A DNA stretch of 62,608 nt, counting the filler, from Rhabdomonas costata (lineage: Eukaryota): assembly GCA_019059605.1 (NCBI GenBank). It is 34 parts of 34 records of this genome, joined end to end, with 100 filler letters (N's around TTAATTAATTAA, not from the genome) between each part and the next. Parts side by side here need not be neighbours in the genome. Positions count along the whole stretch, not along the records: positions 51,646 to 53,389 come from JAHMHO010009716.1; 33 more parts are not named here. One strand, given 5' to 3'. Below the pieces are notes generated by a model, which worked only from the letters and a program-made list of their open reading frames with translations, did no database searches and was not told where the DNA came from. The translations under genes were made by a program, and so were the position numbers. This document shows, one piece after another, positions 3,742-58,493 of the stretch (position 1 is the stretch's first letter; the number at the start of each line of letters is the position of its first letter).

Positions 3742-5435
3742 GCTGGGGCCGTCTCTACGTCACCACGGAGCTGGGCACGAATGAGGGCTGGTGGGCTGCG
3801 GGCTTCCTGGAGGGCAGCCTGACCTCTCACCGAATCTATCAGCACTACATCAGCTGGTACGACATGAAGTACCCGAATGGCAGCAGCCCATCACAGGCAG
3901 TGTGGAAGTTCATCCAGGACCAGTACGAGTGGGCTGCCTCACAGGCCGAGGAGCATAGCGCCAAGGGCTGCAACTACTGGACCCAAGTGGCGCGAATCCT
4001 GAGCTTCACCAACGGGATGGCCGCAGGTCAGGCTTTCTTTGCCCCCGAAAAGGAGGCGCTTTCGTGGCTCGAGGTGCTGCTTCTGCAGGCCCGAGGCGAT
4101 CTCAGCGATATCGAAGACGCGGTGAACCCGAGCATGCTTGTGGACTGGGATAGCCTCTCCGAAGAGGATCACCTCATAGAATGGCACAAGCGGGTGTCAT
4201 GCTCGGTGCTTTGGAAGGTGAACGACGCGCTGACCGACGTGTTGGTGGCCCACAACTCCTGGAACGGGTACCAGACCATGCTGCGTATCATGAAGTACCA
4301 CGATTTTGCTGGGCATCCCAACGCCAGTGCCCCCAATCAGACCGTGGGCCATTACAAGGCAGTCTTGTGCTCGTACCCGGGGGAGGTGCAGAGCCACGAC
4401 GATTTCTACACGCTGCCGTTGCCCCACCAGCAGCTGGTGGTCACGGAGACCACGAATAGCATCTTCAACCAATCTCTGTACGCCTCCGTCAGTGCGAAAT
4501 CGCTGCTGGCCTGGCAGAGCGTCTTGATCAGCAACGCGCTGGCCCGCAGCTCGGCGGAGTGGACCCAGATCTTCGCGAAGCACTGCTCTGGCACCTACGC
4601 CAACCAATGGATGGGTACGCGAGAGAAGGGTGCAGGGTGGAGTAATGGTAAAGCATAATGAAATCAGTGGAGTGATTAAATGCCGAGAGGGGCAGGCCTC
4701 TTGGGAAGCTGGTCCCCGGACTGCTCTGAGTATGCATCCCTTTTTGAACGTGCATCCCTTCCAGCTGGTGGTGAGACACCAAACCTCGTGCTAAGGGATT
4801 GACTAGGTTGGGGTACACGAAGGTACCTTTCGATCGCCCCAAGCACATTTTTTACCCTTCTGGTGGCATCATCTCCACCAATGTCCGCTTTTCTCATCTC
4901 TTCCGTGCATCTTTATCTTCTCACTTCTTTCCACTGATCGCATTCACTTCTGCTCAGTGGGGGACATGAAACTCTTCACTCCGGGCGAGGGAGCCCAGCC
5001 TGGCTTCTTGCACATCATCGAGGTCTTGCCGGGGTATTCACACTTTGAGGACGTGACGTCGGTGATGGTAGCGCAGGGGAACTACTGGCCGAGCTACAAC
5101 CTCCCCTATTTCGAGGACATTTCTCAGCTTTCAGGATCCAGCGGTATCTGCTCGAAGAGGGGCCCATCCTATTGCTACAAAACATGTCCCCGAGCCGAGA
5201 TCTTTCGGCGTGACCACCACACGGTGCAGACCATGTCTGAGATGAAGCGGATGATCCGGTACAACAACTGGCAGAACGACTCGCTCTCTCAGGGAGACCC
5301 CGAAAAATCCATTGCTTCTCGGTATGACCTGCGGCCCTACCCAAAGAAGAATCGTGCTTTTGGTGCGAAAGATGCCAAGGCGAGCTCTTGGGAGATGGTC
5401 GTGCAGCAGGACGGCGCGATGGTCGTGGTGAATGG
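3742..5435 (+). CDS. Phospholipase B-like (PLBD/LAMA-type Ntn hydrolase), exons 3742-4614 and 4958-5435, partial
   Basis: Motifs AAGFLEG, SCSVLWKV (nucleophile Cys), VAHNSW, SHDDFY, VVTETTN, SGTYANQWM, YWPSYNLPYF, PRAEIFRRD, RYNNWQND, SIASRYDL, FGAKDAK. A GT-AG intron at 4615-4957 joins the two ORFs in frame. Confidence 0.93.
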
Positions 5436-22234: not shown

Positions 22235-23574
22235 GAGAACGCACGGCTGAGCCAGAACCAGGTACTTCTGCAGCAAATGCCCTTCTCGCTGCGCACGGCA
22301 TGCCAGGAGGCGTTGGCGATGGTTCAGCACGTGGCGAACCGGAAGGGTGTGGGTCTGGGTCTGGAGTACCCGCCACAGCTGCCGCTGGTGGTGGGGGACC
22401 CCTCGCGGCTGAAGCAGGCCCTTCTGAAGTATGTGTGTGTTTGTCTGCGCGTGTGTGTCAAATAGACTAATAGGAGAGATATGCATTTTCTGCATCGATG
22501 GTACACTCTATTAGCAATAGGGATCAGATAGGCTTTATTTTTGGCTTGTTGCTGTGGTCGAGGTGGTTTGGATGCAATGGCAAGAATGAGCCCCTTCCGA
22601 CACGGATCAAAACCTTCCAAACCATCTCTCGGCCACTCTCAGCCTGCTCTCCAACTCCATCAAGTTCACCTCCAAGGGCGCCGTCAGCCTGAGGGTCGGC
22701 CTCCGCCTCTGCCCCGAGCCCAGTGCGCCGAACGCCTCCCTCGCGGAGCTGGCGCAGGTACGCCTGGAGGTGGTGGACACGGGGGTGGGTCTTAGCGCGG
22801 AGCAGGCGCAGGGCCTGTTCCGGCCCTTCGCGCAGGCCACGGCGGGGACCTACGGGCAGTACGGGGGCTCCGGGCTTGGGCTGGTGATCACGCGGCAGGT
22901 GGTTGCGCTGATGGGGGGCCGGGTGTACGTGGACGCGGTTCGTACGGCGCTAGGGGTGGGTTCGACGTTTGTGGTGGAGCTTTCGCTGCCCGCGGTTGGG
23001 CCGCTCCCGGAGGTCCCTGTTCCGATTCCCGAGCCTCCACATGTCCGCGCAAGCCATAGCAACCGCGCCCCCGGTTACTATTCGATATCTCAAGAGGAGC
23101 TTTTGAAGGCGGAGTTGATCGGGTCGATGCGGCACCGCTCAGCATCCAGCTCTGGGACGAGCCCAGATGAGGTCAGCCCTGAAGCACCTGATTCGGGCTC
23201 CACGGGGCGGGTCCAGTTCGAGCTCCCTATCCTTGAGGTGATGATGGGTCTTTCCCATCCTCCTGTGCCAGTCATGAGTCCCTCCAGCGGGAGATCCGCT
23301 CGCACACGGCTCCCCGTCCTCCCTGGAACTCTCCCGAGCCTTGACCTCAACTCCTTCGACATGGCCAGGAAGAACTCCGGTGGGTCCACGTCTGTGACGT
23401 CGTCCAGCTCCTCGCTGCGCACTCAGTCCACTGCGGCTCCCTCCCAAGCCCATCCCCAGGAGGACCGGCTCTCAGGCTTCTCCGTGCTTGTGGTAGACGA
23501 CAGCATGCTGAACCTCACCCTAACGGCGCGAGTGCTTCGGTCGATGGGGTTTCTCTCGATCTTCACAGCTTCAG
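22235..23574 (+). CDS. Hybrid sensor histidine kinase (HATPase_c plus receiver), exons 22235-22428 and 22643-23574, partial
   Basis: GDPSRLKQALLN|LLSNSIKFT (N box), EVVDTGVGL (G1), LFRPFAQ (F), YGGSGLGLVIT (G2), GVGSTF, then a Ser-rich linker and receiver start VLVVDDSMLNL; spliceosomal intron 22429-22642. Confidence 0.95.
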
Positions 23575-24111
23575 GCATGACAGTTTTTGACGGCATGATT
23601 CTCGCCGGACAATCGTTACCTACACCGCATTGATCAGTTCTCTGAGCGTCAATTTTCCCCAATGCGTTTTTAGCATGTTTATCACATTTTTCCCGCGTTT
23701 AAGAGAGTGAGAGGCATGACATGGTTTGTGCTGTTATTGTCACATTCTACTGAACATCTGCGCGCCCAGAGTATGGTTTTTGAACAGGATACTTAGGTTG
23801 GCAGGATGACACTTCCCACTCGTTTGTGTACACCCACATGTGGGCGGTTTAATTGCATTGGGACTGAATTTCATTGACCTACANNNNNNNNNNNNNNNNN
23901 NNNNNNNNNNNNNNNNNNNNNNNNNNNTTAATTAATTAANNNNNNNNNNNNNNNNNNNNNNNNNNNNNNNNNNNNNNNNNNNNGGGGGTTGGTAGGGTTT
24001 GGGGTTGATAAGCTCTTGTGCCCGCAACCCTACCAACCCCAAACCCTACCAACCTCAAACTCCAGACCGTATAAAATAGCATAAAGTTTTCGGCCGCCAC
24101 GTGCTTTGCAG

Positions 24112-25828: not shown

Positions 25829-27574
25829 GCTTCCGTGTCGTCCCCTGAGCCCGCTGAACCTTCCTCTCCTTCACCTGGGTGGACTGTGGGATTCGAAGTT
25901 AGCCGTCTTGTCCACCACTTTCTCAAAAAGCTTCCAGCATTGTGGCTCAGGTGGCTCCCCAGCTGTTGTAATTCTCTCAGAATTGCTGCTGCCTCTGACA
26001 CCCCCCGCGTTGCTTCCGGGGTTTCCTGCCCTCTGGGTGTCTCCCGTTCTGGCCTGGGGGTTGGTCCTTGCTCCTCCCAACTTTCTCCCAAGGGCTCTCT
26101 ACTTTCTGCTTGGTGGGGTTGCGAGAACCCGGTCCTCCCACTTACTGGGTTGACATTGGAGCTTGCGGGTCCATCTGCTTTTTGATGGATGGGTGTTACA
26201 CGATCGCTTCGATTCTGGCAGCTCCTTTCTAACCGGGTGTCCTCCGGGGCTTTCTCCTTTTCCGTGGCATCCGCTGTTGCTCTGCTGCAACTGCTGCCAT
26301 GCTTCCCGTGGCTTTCCTGATTCTCCGGAAGAACGCTCTGTCCCTGCCTCTTGGCGGCAGTTTCTTTGAGCTGGCCCATTTCTTGACCGCCTTGTGTGGG
26401 CTTCAGCATCTCTTCATCTTCTTCGCGCACGCTCTGCTTTGCATATTTGGTCAGGCGTCGAAACCATGCTCGAAGATACCCCCTCCTGAGCTCCCTGGCG
26501 GCCCACCATTGGCTCAGAAACTTACCCCACACTTCGTGTAGCCGCCTCCGGGGGTAACCCCTTCTGAAGGCGCACTTGACAATGTAAAGTACCGCCTCCT
26601 TGAATCCCTTCAAGTGGCTACAAATACGCTGGGCCCGTATAAACTGACCCATCACCACGCCCATGCGCTGTTCCTCAGATACTTGACTGTCCTGGGCAGG
26701 GTAACGGATGATCCTGATTGGGTACGAGGCCTCCCTTTGAAGCAGCTCTGTGAAAACCCGGCAACGCTCATTTTCCTCTTTCCACAAGAGCTTCATTCCC
26801 AAATATTCCAAAACTCCAGGCTGCTTCCTGGTACTCTTATAACCCATGCCGTAGTCCGCTTCCGTTGGGATCTTGCCCGACATTGTCAGAATGTCGTCTA
26901 TGAAGCGGTAGTTATCTTCAACATCTTCAGGGGCACAAGTTGCTGCAAAATCCCTCTCCGGGATGTAGCAGGCCAGGTTCGCCAATTGCGGGGCGCACTG
27001 CAGGCCCATCCCAAAGCCTTTCACTTGACGTTTTATACTTTGGCCCCACTTCAGGTAGCCATTATCAATCACAAAGTTGACCAACTCCATGACATCCCGT
27101 TGTGTCATTCCTTCTTGCCCCGGGGCTTCAATCTCCTGAATCCACCCTTCCCGTGACAAACGAAGTCGGCCCCCTTCTTTCTGTTCTTCATATTCCCAAG
27201 CTTCTTGTATCGCCTCGGCCACGCGCTCCTTCAGTAGGTCCTGGTCAAACATCGGATACATTGTTACGAAATCAACTGTATCGGCTGTATCTTTCCTCTC
27301 TTTCAGGGCGTCCGCTTTGAATCTGATGGGCTGCACAACCTCCTCTACACTCGTGACAAACCACACTTTTTTGGGTTCCCCCCGATCCATGCCTTCAACA
27401 TCCTTTTGCTTCAATGACTCCATCACTTGATTCAGCAGCTTTACAAGTTCCATGCCGGCCCCCGCAATAGACCCGTGCGGCTTTTCTCTGAGGCCTTTCT
27501 GCTTGTCCTCTGGGGTCTTCTTCACCCCAGATATTATCCTCAATTTCCGCTTCGCACTTTTCCAAATGCCATAT
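25829..27574 (-). mobile_element. Penelope-like retroelement reverse transcriptase ORF (Naiad/Chlamys-type), intronless and open across the whole contig
   Basis: YGIWKSAKRKLRIISG, TVDFVTMYP, RQVKGFGMGLQCAPQLANL, YRFIDDIL, YLGM, and the PLE thumb IIRYPAQDS...GVVMGQFIRAQRICS...F.EAV...FRRGYP. Confidence 0.9.
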
Positions 27575-49800: not shown

Positions 49801-51290
49801 GCACCCCTCACTCTCTCTTCCTTGCATCAGGGTCGTTCAGGGGTGCCTTCTACCTTGGGTCTCTTTCTCTTTTACTATAGTCAGCGTGGGTGCGTGGTTT
49901 TGGGTTTTTGTGTCCTGGGGTCAGAATTCTTGGTTAGGGTCAGGAATCGTGATTAGGTATCGGGTGTATAGGTGGGCTCAGTTGGTAGGATATCGGTATC
50001 TAGGTTGGTTCTGTGGCTAGGGTTGGGTTTAGGCGTCGGTATTTGTAGATTTGTATCGGAGTGTTGGTTCGGGATTCTGCGCCGGTAATTGTGTGTTTGA
50101 GTTACTGGTTCGGTCTTCGTGTGTTGTAATTCTACGTGTTCATGCGTGGGTTCTGTGGTCAGGTGTCAGGTCTTCGATTTAGGGACATCTCACATTCTGG
50201 GGTTAGTAGCTGGTTCTGGAGGCTTAGTGTTTCGGCCTTCTGTCTTTCTGGTTTGTTGCGTTTACTGAGATGGTTCTGGCATTTGGAGTCGTGGTTACTG
50301 GTTTGCTTTACTTGGGTTCGCTTCTCTTGCACTTATTGGTTTGGCTGGTGACTTCGTGTTCGTGTTTCTGGGTTCTACAACTGGCTTAGTGGTTAGGCCT
50401 TCGTTTCTGTGTTGGGCATTCTGGGTTTTTGGGTTATGTCTTGGACTATCTGTGCCTGTCGTCATGGTGCCTTCATGGCTCCTGGTTCGGTTTTGCGTCT
50501 CCGTTGTGTTCTAGGTCTCCTCAGCTACGATGGCTCCTGTTTCTGCGTCAGTGCGTGCTTTATTGTGCTTGCGTGGGCTTGTGCCTTTGCGGATTGGGTT
50601 TGCGTCTCTGTGTTTGGCCTTCGGTTTCTCATTTTGCGGTGCTGTGAATGTATTATGGTTCTACCTTCTGTTGTTGGTATTCGGTCTTTTTGTCTTCATT
50701 GTGTACTTGGTATCTCTCGCTGTGTCTGGTGCTTTATCTCTGTGTGTTCGTACTTGGTTGGTGATTTTGTGAGTCAGTGTGGTTTTCTTTGTGTGCGAGG
50801 TGATCTTGGCCTTCGGTCCTTCCACTTAGGTGTATTCTGTAGTCTCGTTAGTTCTGGTGGGCGCGTAAGAGTTGGGTGGGTGGCTTTCGGTGTCTGGGTT
50901 TGTAGTTCTTCCTGGTTCCATGTTGCATTCTGTAACATTCTGTGTCCGGGTGTGTGTCGGTTTTGCTACGTGTTCTTTCGCTCCTGGTGTGCCTTCGTGT
51001 CATGGTATAGATTGTGGTGGTGCTTTGTGTGGTTTGAACGTGCATGGTGGGGTGGTGGTGTCCTTGGTGTCATTGTTCGGTCCTTCCGCATAGGTAGTTT
51101 TCAAGTGTTCTCTGTGCGCTGTCGTTCGGGTTTTTGGGTGTGGGGTGGATGCAAGGTGTCGGATGTGTACGTTGGTGGAGGTTGCGTGTGTTGCTGATGC
51201 TTAGTGTTGGTGCGTATGTTGCGATGTGTTAGGGTGGTGATGCTTATGGTGTTAGAGTGTAAGAGTGGAGAAGTGAGTAGAGTACTCACG
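49801..51290. repeat. ~1.5-kb G/T-rich, A-depleted low-complexity tract with degenerate recurring words
   Basis: Visible strand skew; recurring ggccttcg, ttcggtc, tggttctgg, gttactggtt, and a few TTAGGG-like hexamers near 49930-50035. Confidence 0.7.
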
Positions 51291-51545
51291 TACTACCTGG
51301 GATGTCCACGTCATCGACAGTCATGACATCAGCCAACGAAATTGCTGTGCAGAGAGCTCCAGGAACTGTATAGCTAAGAATTTTGCAGATATCACCAGAG
51401 TACATGCTCACATCAATCAAAGTTGATCGGGTATAGCAGACATGAAGCCACAGCTTATGCAGGGTTACACCGGAGGCATCACCAGATGTGGTTAAGAGTG
51501 ACACTCTAGAGGCAAGCGTGGAGCACGTTGTGAAGAACTCGTTGT
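51290..51545 (-). CDS. Possible exon of an unknown protein
   Basis: Open frame NEFFTTCSTLASRVSLL...SLADVMTVDDVDIP ending at a donor (gtagta at 51296 or gtgagt at 51289), where composition switches abruptly to the skewed tract. Confidence 0.35.
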
Positions 51546-52344
51546 NNNNNNNNNNNNNNNNNNNNNNNNNNNNNNNNNNNNNNNNNNNNTTAATTAATTA
51601 ANNNNNNNNNNNNNNNNNNNNNNNNNNNNNNNNNNNNNNNNNNNNGGCGTCTCTTCCGTGGCGAAACTTTGTCCGCCTGTTGGGCCCACACAACGCTAAA
51701 TGCCAAAAAGAGTTTATTTTGACCTGACGGTGACTTTCTATTTGATGAGCTTCGTATTGTACAGGTTCGTATGCTTCTTCAGAAAGGATTACCTCCTGCA
51801 CACCCATCGGATTGTCCTGTGATATATTTTCACACCAAAAGCATCGAAATGCTGCCACGTTTTTTTACCTTCAAGAAGGTTTTCGTTATTGTACGTTCTG
51901 CCCGAATGCATTCACCAACCTGAAAAGTTTCGTCATCGTGGGTTGAAAAATTACGTCCACACACATTGGCGGCATCATCAGTCGACGAAATGGACTGAGG
52001 CATGCCTGAGGTGAGGCGTCTTAAATGCCGTATTTCCCTGCTGGGCCTGTGCGATGTGCATGTCACATGGCTACCCACTGGTTCCGTGTGGTTCCGTGCT
52101 GCCGCCGCTTTGTTTTTCCGTGTGATGTTATGATATGACCAGTGTAGGGAGCCCTCCCCTGACTTGGACCGCAGTTTCCAATCCCCATTCAGGAGGTTCG
52201 GATGTTTTGGTGCCATAAGGCTGGACCAAACGTGAGCTAATGGGAGGGTGGGTTGGTGTTGGGAAGTTAAATTATACTCTGTGTTCAGCAATGCCGCTGG
52301 CTCCTGCGAAAAGGGTTTGCAACTGAGCTCTCCACGCACCGCAC

Positions 52345-52961
52345 CTCGGGCCCCTTCAGCCGGAGTAAGGTGCGGGCGATCACAACGGCCAGGGCGGTGG
52401 GCTGCAGCTGCCCATCCTCCGGCAGAAGGGGGTTGCCGTCCTGGTCGGCTTTCCCAATCACCACTGGTGGGGAGGGGCGGCCGTACAGCAGGTCCTTCAG
52501 CTGCCACTCTGAGGCAAGCATGCAAAGAGAATGGGGAGAACGCGCGCACAGATTGCTCATGCCAGGACTCGCGCGAGAACGGCTGGAAAGAGTATGGGCA
52601 TGAAAGAGAGGATAGGTCGCAGGGTCTGTTTTGGGTTCGCGCCTGATCACATATCGGTGTTACGGTTGTTGGTCAGGTCACCCAGAATCGAACCAAAGCT
52701 CCTCGACCCCTCAACCCCACCCAGTCATGGACACACGTCAGAAAGAAAAGGCTCCCCCGACGCCAGGTTGCTGAATTTGCGGAGGTCTTCTGCTCTGGGG
52801 CTCCTCATTCAGAGAGATCCTCCTCCCTTTGTATCAATCCTCCCACCCATTCAAAAAAAAGCACCGATCAGGTTGCGCTTCTCCTCCACCACCAGCACCA
52901 CCTCCAGCCCGGAGCAGAACTCCCGCACCGCGGTGGGCTCCAGAGGCCACGGCATGCCCAC
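52345..52961 (-). CDS. Bacterial-type fused indolepyruvate/2-oxoacid:ferredoxin oxidoreductase (IOR family); exons 52961-52865 and 52508-52345
   Basis: Spliced product VGMPWPLEPTAVREFCSGLEVVLVVEEKRNLI|EWQLKDLLYGRPSPPVVIGKADQDGNPLLPEDGQLQPTALAVVIARTL matches the fused-IOR pattern kVGM.WPLEP..vr.Fa.GL.eilVVEEKR..iE.QlK..LY......viGK.D..G..llP..GeL.p..ia..iA.rL; phase-1 GT-AG intron 52864-52509. Confidence 0.88.
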
Positions 52962-53489
52962 CTGGGACCCAGACAAACAACACCCAGAAAAAGTGGGAAG
53001 GAGGAAGGAGAGCGACGCTGTCCTGCCTTATCTTCATACCCCATCATGGCTATGGCTCGGCGTTTGGAAATCGGGTTTGGATATTGCTCCCCACGCATCC
53101 CTCCATTTTAGACGAGCAAGAGATACTGCCTGGTCTTTTTCTTCGACTTAGGGACAGGTGTGTTACCAGAGTGGTAAAGTCCCTGAGTTCTCAGAAGAAT
53201 AGAGAGAACAGCGAAGCGAACTCCTTCCATGACCACTACCAAAAAAAACAAGTTTTCAGGTACTAATCCGCACACAAACACAAGTAGGCAAGGATTAGCC
53301 CCTTGAGGCCACATCCACTCTCACAAAAACACACGCAAATACGTAATGTGAATAGCATTCATTGGAACCGATTCTTCAACAAAGAACAANNNNNNNNNNN
53401 NNNNNNNNNNNNNNNNNNNNNNNNNNNNNNNNNTTAATTAATTAANNNNNNNNNNNNNNNNNNNNNNNNNNNNNNNNNNNNNNNNNNNN

Positions 53490-57378: not shown

Positions 57379-58493
57379 TCCCGCCAAGCAGCCGCCCGGG
57401 ATGCCCAGTGGCTCCTTTGGGCCCACCACCGCGGGTCGGATGGACACGTACGTGGGACTTTTCCAGGAGCACGGTGGGAGCATGATCATGGTTGCAAAGG
57501 GGAACCGCTCCAAACAGGCACGCAACCTCGACGCGCACTCATGGGCATCCACACTGCCAGCGGCGGTGGCAACACCTGGTGATCCCAATGGTTTAAGGGG
57601 GGGGCCTTTAGAACACAGAAAATTACCAATCACACCCCACTCCACTACACCCCACCTCAACGACGTGGTATGGTCTGCTCAGAAAAGGAAGCTAAGTAAC
57701 AGCCAACCGGATTTATCGGTGGGGACAGACCGGTTTTTCACCTGACGCTGCTTGTTGTTCAATGCTTTCGCTGTCCAGCTGTCCATCAATTCTAATAACT
57801 GCTTCATATAGGCCCAACAGAAAACACTCTTTCTTGCGCAAGCACCAACCACCAAGTGCATAGTTATCCAACATTTTCATTCAAAGAGCGCGTCCAGAGC
57901 TGGGAAGCCAAGTTCGAGAAGAGAGGAGAAGGGGAGGGGGGTTCCCAGGTCACCGATGCCTGCAAGAAGTACGGGGGCTTTTATCTGGGATCCATCGGGG
58001 GCCCTGCAGCCCGGCTGGCCCAGGACTGCATTAAGTGTGTCTGAGTGTGGGTGGTGGTGGATGGACAGGTGTGATGGCGTAGGTCGGCTGCATTGATGCG
58101 TGAAAGGCAGAGAGATTTTGTGCATTTGTGCACTTGAAATGTTTTTAGATCGTTTAGGATTTCCAGTAAGTCAGAAGTGCACATGTTGATGTGCGCGTGG
58201 TACCCACGTGTGTGTCCGTGCCTGTGTTTGCGTGTCCGTGGTGCTGCTTTGGCTTCAGGAAGGTTGAGGTTCTGGAGTACCCCGAACTGGGCATGGAGGC
58301 TGTGTGGCGCATTGAGGTCGTCTTACCGCCTGTACTCCGATTTTGTATTTCCTCTCGCTGCGTTTGGCTTCACGTTTGAAGTGGTGATTCCATTTCCCTC
58401 TGATTTTACGTACGTCTTCTTGTGTATGTTCGCCAGTTTTGGGGGAATATCTCCTTTTTCAGGTGGTTGACTTTCCCGCCTTCATTATCGTCG
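57379..58493 (+). CDS. Class I (Fe-S) fumarate hydratase, C-terminal domain; exons 57379-57517, 57949-58034, 58259-58316 and 58463-58493
   Basis: [25 protein letters not shown]...[73 protein letters not shown], the characteristic FumA/FumB-type sequence. Confidence 0.96.

Follow-up and report, generated by a model that had tools for sequence, protein, structure and literature searches.

A short contig of the Rhabdomonas costata genome assembly holds two exons, with a phase-1 GT-AG intron between them, that encode part of a protein of the indolepyruvate ferredoxin oxidoreductase (IOR) family, and we consider it probable that these exons belong to a genuine intron-bearing gene of the assembled eukaryote. 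In the reading that we favor, both would be internal exons of a eukaryotic gene with introns that encodes the long, single-chain form of IOR, together covering approximately positions 324-413 of the 1170-position family profile. That the gene is complete and functional is a more tentative proposition, which we regard as somewhat doubtful.

The stretch of DNA analyzed here (the window; 62,608 nt) is not a chromosome segment: it is a string of 34 unrelated contigs, each 1739-1746 nt long, that follow one another in approximately descending order of size. Between them stand 33 linkers (N44-TTAATTAATTAA-N44), which account for 66 runs of 44 N. Because the window is a concatenation, adjacent contigs are not genomic neighbors, and readings of gene neighborhood across a linker are unsafe. 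The coordinates of the gene piece, located on contig 29, and of two further coding pieces are listed in Table 1. A search of the window against Rfam gave no match, and two spliced-leader motifs (dinoflagellate and Euglena) had no matches with up to three mismatches.

Table 1. Positions in the window of the IOR gene piece, its flanks and two other intron-containing coding pieces
Feature	Positions	Strand	Description
Contig 29 (gene piece)	51646..53389	-	1744 nt; unplaced; artificial linkers on both sides
Upstream partial intron (428 nt or more) or non-coding DNA	52962..53389	-	without IOR match; GC 0.47
Exon A	52865..52961	-	97 nt; VGMPWPLEPTAVREFCSGLEVVLVVEEKRNLI plus first base of a Glu codon; matches NF009589
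Intron	52509..52864	-	356 nt; GT...AG; phase 1; read directly
Exon B	52345..52508	-	164 nt; (E)WQLKDLLYGRPSPPVVIGKADQDGNPLLPEDGQLQPTALAVVIARTLLRLKGPE, followed by GTGCGG; exact 3' end placed from the GT and the end of the profile match
Downstream partial intron (699 nt or more) or non-coding DNA	51646..52344	-	donor-like GTGCGG start; without IOR match
Phospholipase B (PF04916), contig 3	3747-5430	+	two exon pieces, profile 29-295 and 296-444
Class I (Fe-S) fumarate hydratase, C-terminal domain, contig 32	57470-58500	+	exons; PF05683 at 57943-58035

On the minus strand, exon A is preceded by a pyrimidine-rich tract (~53012-52985) and an acceptor CAG at 52964-52962, which reads cccAG with the AG at 52963-52962. 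The intron opens with GTGCTTTT (donor G|GTGCTT, with the GT at 52864-52863), contains stop codons in all three frames (2, 5 and 5) and closes with a pyrimidine-rich stretch (~52540-52512) followed by CAG. At the phase-1 junction, the final G of exon A and the initial AG of exon B form a Glu codon, giving ...KRNLI-E-WQLKDLLY, and removal of the intron restores the frame and the register of homology with zero residues gained or lost, both relative to the Rhodococcus IOR (351|352) and relative to the profiles. The two exons and the clean phase-1 GT-AG intron of the preliminary description can thus be read from the sequence as described there. The features of a spliceosomal (U2-type) intron are present, namely the GT...AG boundaries, the pyrimidine tract before the AG and the restoration of frame and register. 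The exons have a GC content of 69%, with GC3 of 0.97 in exon A and 0.85 in exon B, and the GC content outside the exons is 0.54 in the intron, 0.47 in the upstream flank and 0.50 in the downstream flank.

Each exon on its own matches the NCBIfam model NF009589, "indolepyruvate ferredoxin oxidoreductase family protein": exon A at E 2.7e-8 (profile positions 324-355 of 1170) and exon B at E 1.7e-8 (positions 358-409, extending to 356-413 if the open frame is followed throughout), with the sister model NF009588 ranking next. The respective scores are 32 and 32.7 bits, and the curated cut-off of 816 bits, which applies to the whole protein, is out of reach for 87 residues. Our own HMM, based on 11 bacterial long IORs and applied to all 2519 six-frame ORFs of the window of at least 12 aa, detected the exon A ORF at E 3.6e-10 (HMM positions 327-359) and the exon B ORF at E 1.6e-13 (positions 360-414); just these two of the 2519 ORFs were significant, the next one having an E-value of 2.4. 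In a tblastn search with the IOR of a Rhodococcus opacus plasmid, residues 319-351 aligned with exon A (61% identity) and residues 352-401 with exon B (49%), the junction between the two being exact. Judged by these alignments and scores, the collinear IOR match of both exons is far beyond chance.

This result bears out the assignment to the single-chain IOR family in the preliminary description, which had proposed to compare the spliced peptide with IOR and PFO profiles. The best match is the long IOR model, the model of the IorA subunit (TIGR03336) matches exon A at E 0.0047, and PFO profiles give nothing at E<=1. Families of the PFO, PNO, OGOR and VOR types had no match at E<=1 to either exon in NCBIfam, and no PFO-type family was matched in Pfam, where neither exon had a match to any family at E<=1. 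The visible part of the gene amounts to 87 of ~1170 codons, that is, ~7% of the protein, all of it in the non-catalytic middle domain, and these 87 codons contain no catalytic or cofactor-binding motif. The TPP-binding domain PF02775 is not found on contig 29 and had no match anywhere in the window of unrelated contigs, and the C-terminal part of the gene, with PF01558 and PF20169 (DUF6537), is likewise absent from this window. Neither tblastn nor our HMM, applied to six-frame ORFs, revealed a further IOR exon within the 62.6 kb; given that the window is made up of unrelated contigs, this absence speaks neither for nor against an intact gene.

The family is otherwise bacterial, and the exons are as GC-rich as the genes of a high-GC bacterium, as would be expected if the contig were a bacterial contaminant in which the gene had been interrupted by a chance insertion of 356 nt. 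However, the interruption is bounded by GT and AG, carries a pyrimidine tract and, once removed, leaves the exact frame and register. Moreover, the IOR likeness breaks off abruptly at the AG that precedes exon A and, on the other side, at the GT that follows exon B or close to it, and the 428-nt and 699-nt flanks show no IOR match in any minus-strand frame, whereas a bacterial gene would continue into both. We consider this explanation effectively refuted. The preliminary description had argued from the intron against contamination, and a spliceosomal-type GT-AG phase-1 intron indeed rules out plain bacterial contamination.

Additional evidence for a eukaryotic gene comes from a metagenomic relative of exon B. 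An exhaustive phmmer search with exon B as the query, covering 1.84 billion representative proteins, yielded 36 matches at E<=0.001. Six of these were treated as false matches and left out of the identity computation and the tree: the long repeat proteins P0001, P0002 and P0005, in which numerous stretches match, and P0011, P0013 and P0023, likewise long and matched in many places. P0003, a 228-aa ORF that forms a singleton cluster and originates from a 1641-nt ENA metagenome contig, is 72% identical to exon B and is the sole sequence nearer to exon B than the bacterial IORs. In a BLASTP comparison of P0003 with the stop-to-stop ORF of the window, 35 of 49 residues are identical, from ...S|EWQLKD to ...IAR. 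The in-frame residues ahead of this stretch (49 and 75) show no alignment, and neither do those behind it. Just upstream of the match, P0003 has an abundance of Pro, Leu, Ser and Ala, like a translated pyrimidine tract, and the P0003 ORF appears to read through the intron, exon and intron of a related eukaryotic gene. This restriction of the likeness to the exon suggests that the intron position is conserved and that the exon is under purifying selection. As far as can be read from the protein translation, P0003 may represent a second, diverged copy of the gene with the same exon start, in which the exon is constrained and the intron drifts. Word-index protein searches with exon B gave no scored match, a weak negative given that P0003 was missed as well.

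The relationship with P0003 also bears on the possibility that the two open exons are a dead relic, i.e., a transferred IOR fragment or a processed or partial duplicate that does not belong to any complete, expressed gene. Such a relic would account for the presence of just two exons, whose flanks (428 nt or more and 699 nt or more) show no further homology, on a contig that is short and unplaced. However, both exons are open and retain the strongly conserved residues of the family, with exon A reaching 82% identity to bacterial enzymes, the splice signals are intact, and the codon bias is kept, with GC3 of 0.85-0.97; furthermore, the 72% identity between exon B and P0003 is found next to flanks that are unalike. 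Accordingly, we regard a relic as unlikely.

Another explanation is that the gene is real and intron-containing but belongs to a different eukaryote, a contaminant, prey or symbiont, that was assembled together with R. costata. This would fit a 1.7-kb unplaced contig among the leftovers of an assembly as well as the fact that the sole close relative is a metagenomic ORF, P0003. However, in trinucleotide composition contig 29 ranks second of the 34 for typicality, correlating at r=0.931 with the pool of the other 33. Furthermore, the splice signals and intron size of the IOR piece resemble those of two genes elsewhere in the window, which encode phospholipase B and fumarase. The phospholipase B gene is interrupted at 4615-4957 by a GT-AG intron of 343 nt in phase 1, at profile position 295|296, with a long pyrimidine tract and CAG. 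The fumarase exons on contig 32, as read from the sequence, are split by GT-AG introns of roughly 130-225 nt, placed partly by the fumarase consensus. GC3 in these two coding pieces is 0.75-0.80. The match in intron length, GT-AG boundaries, pyrimidine tract and GC3 is weak evidence because the contigs with the phospholipase B and fumarase genes are also unplaced. We regard the origin of the gene from another eukaryote as quite improbable. Class I fumarase is an enzyme type common to bacteria and protists.

We favor, then, a gene of the assembled eukaryote, and its ancestry is most likely bacterial. The 58-aa exon A ORF matched 44 proteins at E<=1 among 62 candidates, with up to 82% identity to betaproteobacterial long IORs over the exon-coded 57% of the query ORF. 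All 21 named proteins of these 44 are bacterial IOR family proteins, from Burkholderiales, Rhodocyclaceae, Aeromicrobium and Azotimanducaceae, and those of full length mostly combine PF01558, PF02775 and PF20169. Horizontal acquisition from a bacterium is plausible because all of the named exon A homologs are bacterial. The very high GC3 of the exons, taken here as a host-like trait, would however also be expected of a recent transfer from a GC-rich bacterium. Following such a transfer, the gene would have taken on the style of its host, with GT-AG introns, long polypyrimidine tracts and GC3-rich codons.

The identity of a donor is a separate matter. The nearest bacterial types are betaproteobacterial for exon A and alphaproteobacterial and actinobacterial for exon B, and the spliced 87-residue peptide is 38-57% identical to 62 bacterial-type sequences, the maximum of 57% being reached over 80-84 aligned positions. 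In a tblastn search of plasmids with exon B, 76 records were matched, all with less than 60% identity; among the 10 listed of the 76, six are annotated as IOR family proteins, three fall in unannotated records and one has no annotated feature at the matched site. A scan of prokaryotic genomes found 22 loci with 39-54% identity, mostly in Reyranella and other Rhodospirillales, but the choice of two peptide patterns for the scan skews this sample, which is therefore silent on the donor. A scan of JGI metagenomes with the alignment of exon B and P0003 returned 11 loci, all of the bacterial type and with 47-51% identity, and no second eukaryote-like locus. In a tree of 587 columns, in which the included sequences span far beyond the 87-residue region and from which P0003 was left out owing to low coverage, the window sequence falls in an unsupported polytomy, and we draw no donor from it.

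Among known systems, the closest are the bacterial long IORs (NF009589/PRK13030), which are collinear with the exons over profile positions 324-413; examples are WP_269591972.1, from the Rhodococcus opacus plasmid, WP_162590044.1, from Variovorax sp. RA8, and proteins from metagenome-assembled genomes of Burkholderiales and Rhodocyclaceae, such as P0059. The bacterial genes, however, are uninterrupted ORFs of ~1166-1190 aa, whereas the window gene has a spliceosomal-type intron and non-coding flanks. No solved structure in the PDB matches P0059 at E<=0.001. The two-subunit IorAB of archaea and anaerobic bacteria belongs to the same superfamily, but the match of exon A to TIGR03336 (profile positions 261-290 of 595) is far weaker than that to the long form, and exon B has none at E<=1. 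Genetic work on ior1 has reportedly been carried out in Phaeobacter. In a figure legend of PMC6122490, IorAB is named in the phenylalanine metabolism of Phaeobacter.

The eukaryotic PFO and PNO are one-subunit members of the same superfamily and represent an OFOR type known in protists, according to PMC13768988 and PMC10411912, but the window piece belongs to another OFOR branch and matches no PFO-type profile at E<=1. In PMC10411912, the long IOR is described as the commonest OFOR of alphaproteobacteria, and anaerobic eukaryotes are described as having mainly PFO and OGOR; of the eukaryotic enzymes, PMC13768988 discusses PFORs. Taken together, these two papers present the eukaryotic enzymes that oxidize 2-oxoacids with ferredoxin as PFO/PNO and, for some organelles, OGOR. 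In our full-text literature searches we came across no description of a eukaryotic long IOR, and supplementary tables of protist genomes and transcriptomes may list one.

Should the remaining parts of the gene prove intact, its product would, by family, be a TPP- and iron-sulfur-dependent enzyme with [4Fe-4S] clusters that oxidatively decarboxylates an aryl- or branched-chain 2-oxoacid in the presence of CoA, yielding CO2 and the acyl-CoA and reducing ferredoxin by two electrons. We base this predicted mechanism on how the family is annotated and on what is generally known of OFORs, as presented in PMC13768988. The putative substrates are taken from the family name, and, judged from the family name alone, the enzyme may have a role in low-oxygen amino-acid catabolism. 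A broader scenario would be that a eukaryotic lineage including the host and the source of P0003 domesticated a complete bacterial long IOR, that the introns were gained before these sources diverged, and that the enzyme provides a ferredoxin-linked route from aryl- or branched-chain 2-oxoacids to acyl-CoA. We offer this scenario as a possibility, one that we consider a little less probable than its negation. If it is true, the enzyme would be a third kind of eukaryotic 2-oxoacid:ferredoxin oxidoreductase, beside PFO/PNO and OGOR. A gene that is intact and expressed would represent a bacterial-to-eukaryote transfer with later intron gain and would suggest that the host breaks down amino acids by an oxygen-sensitive route. 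Completeness, expression, substrate and horizontal origin are all features that we infer, and the present evidence, a two-exon fragment, makes the gene a credible lead rather than an established new pathway.

Three other contigs in the window show features of separate interest. Contig 13 contains, on the plus strand (22590-23633), an open frame of 347 aa with the ATPase domain of histidine kinases (PF02518). The end of this frame resembles the first part of a response-regulator receiver, which hints at a hybrid kinase; Pfam gave no receiver. Across the whole of contig 15, on the minus strand (25831-27573), runs an open frame of 581 aa that matches no Pfam family at E<=0.01; it includes the stretch ...YRFIDDIL..., which we take to be reverse-transcriptase-like, so the frame may belong to a retroelement. 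Contig 28 (49801-51545) is G/T-rich and strongly skewed, with a GC skew of +0.23 and an AT skew of -0.40 at 50001-52000, and its long open frames of Cys, Val, Phe and Gly repeats probably represent simple-repeat DNA.
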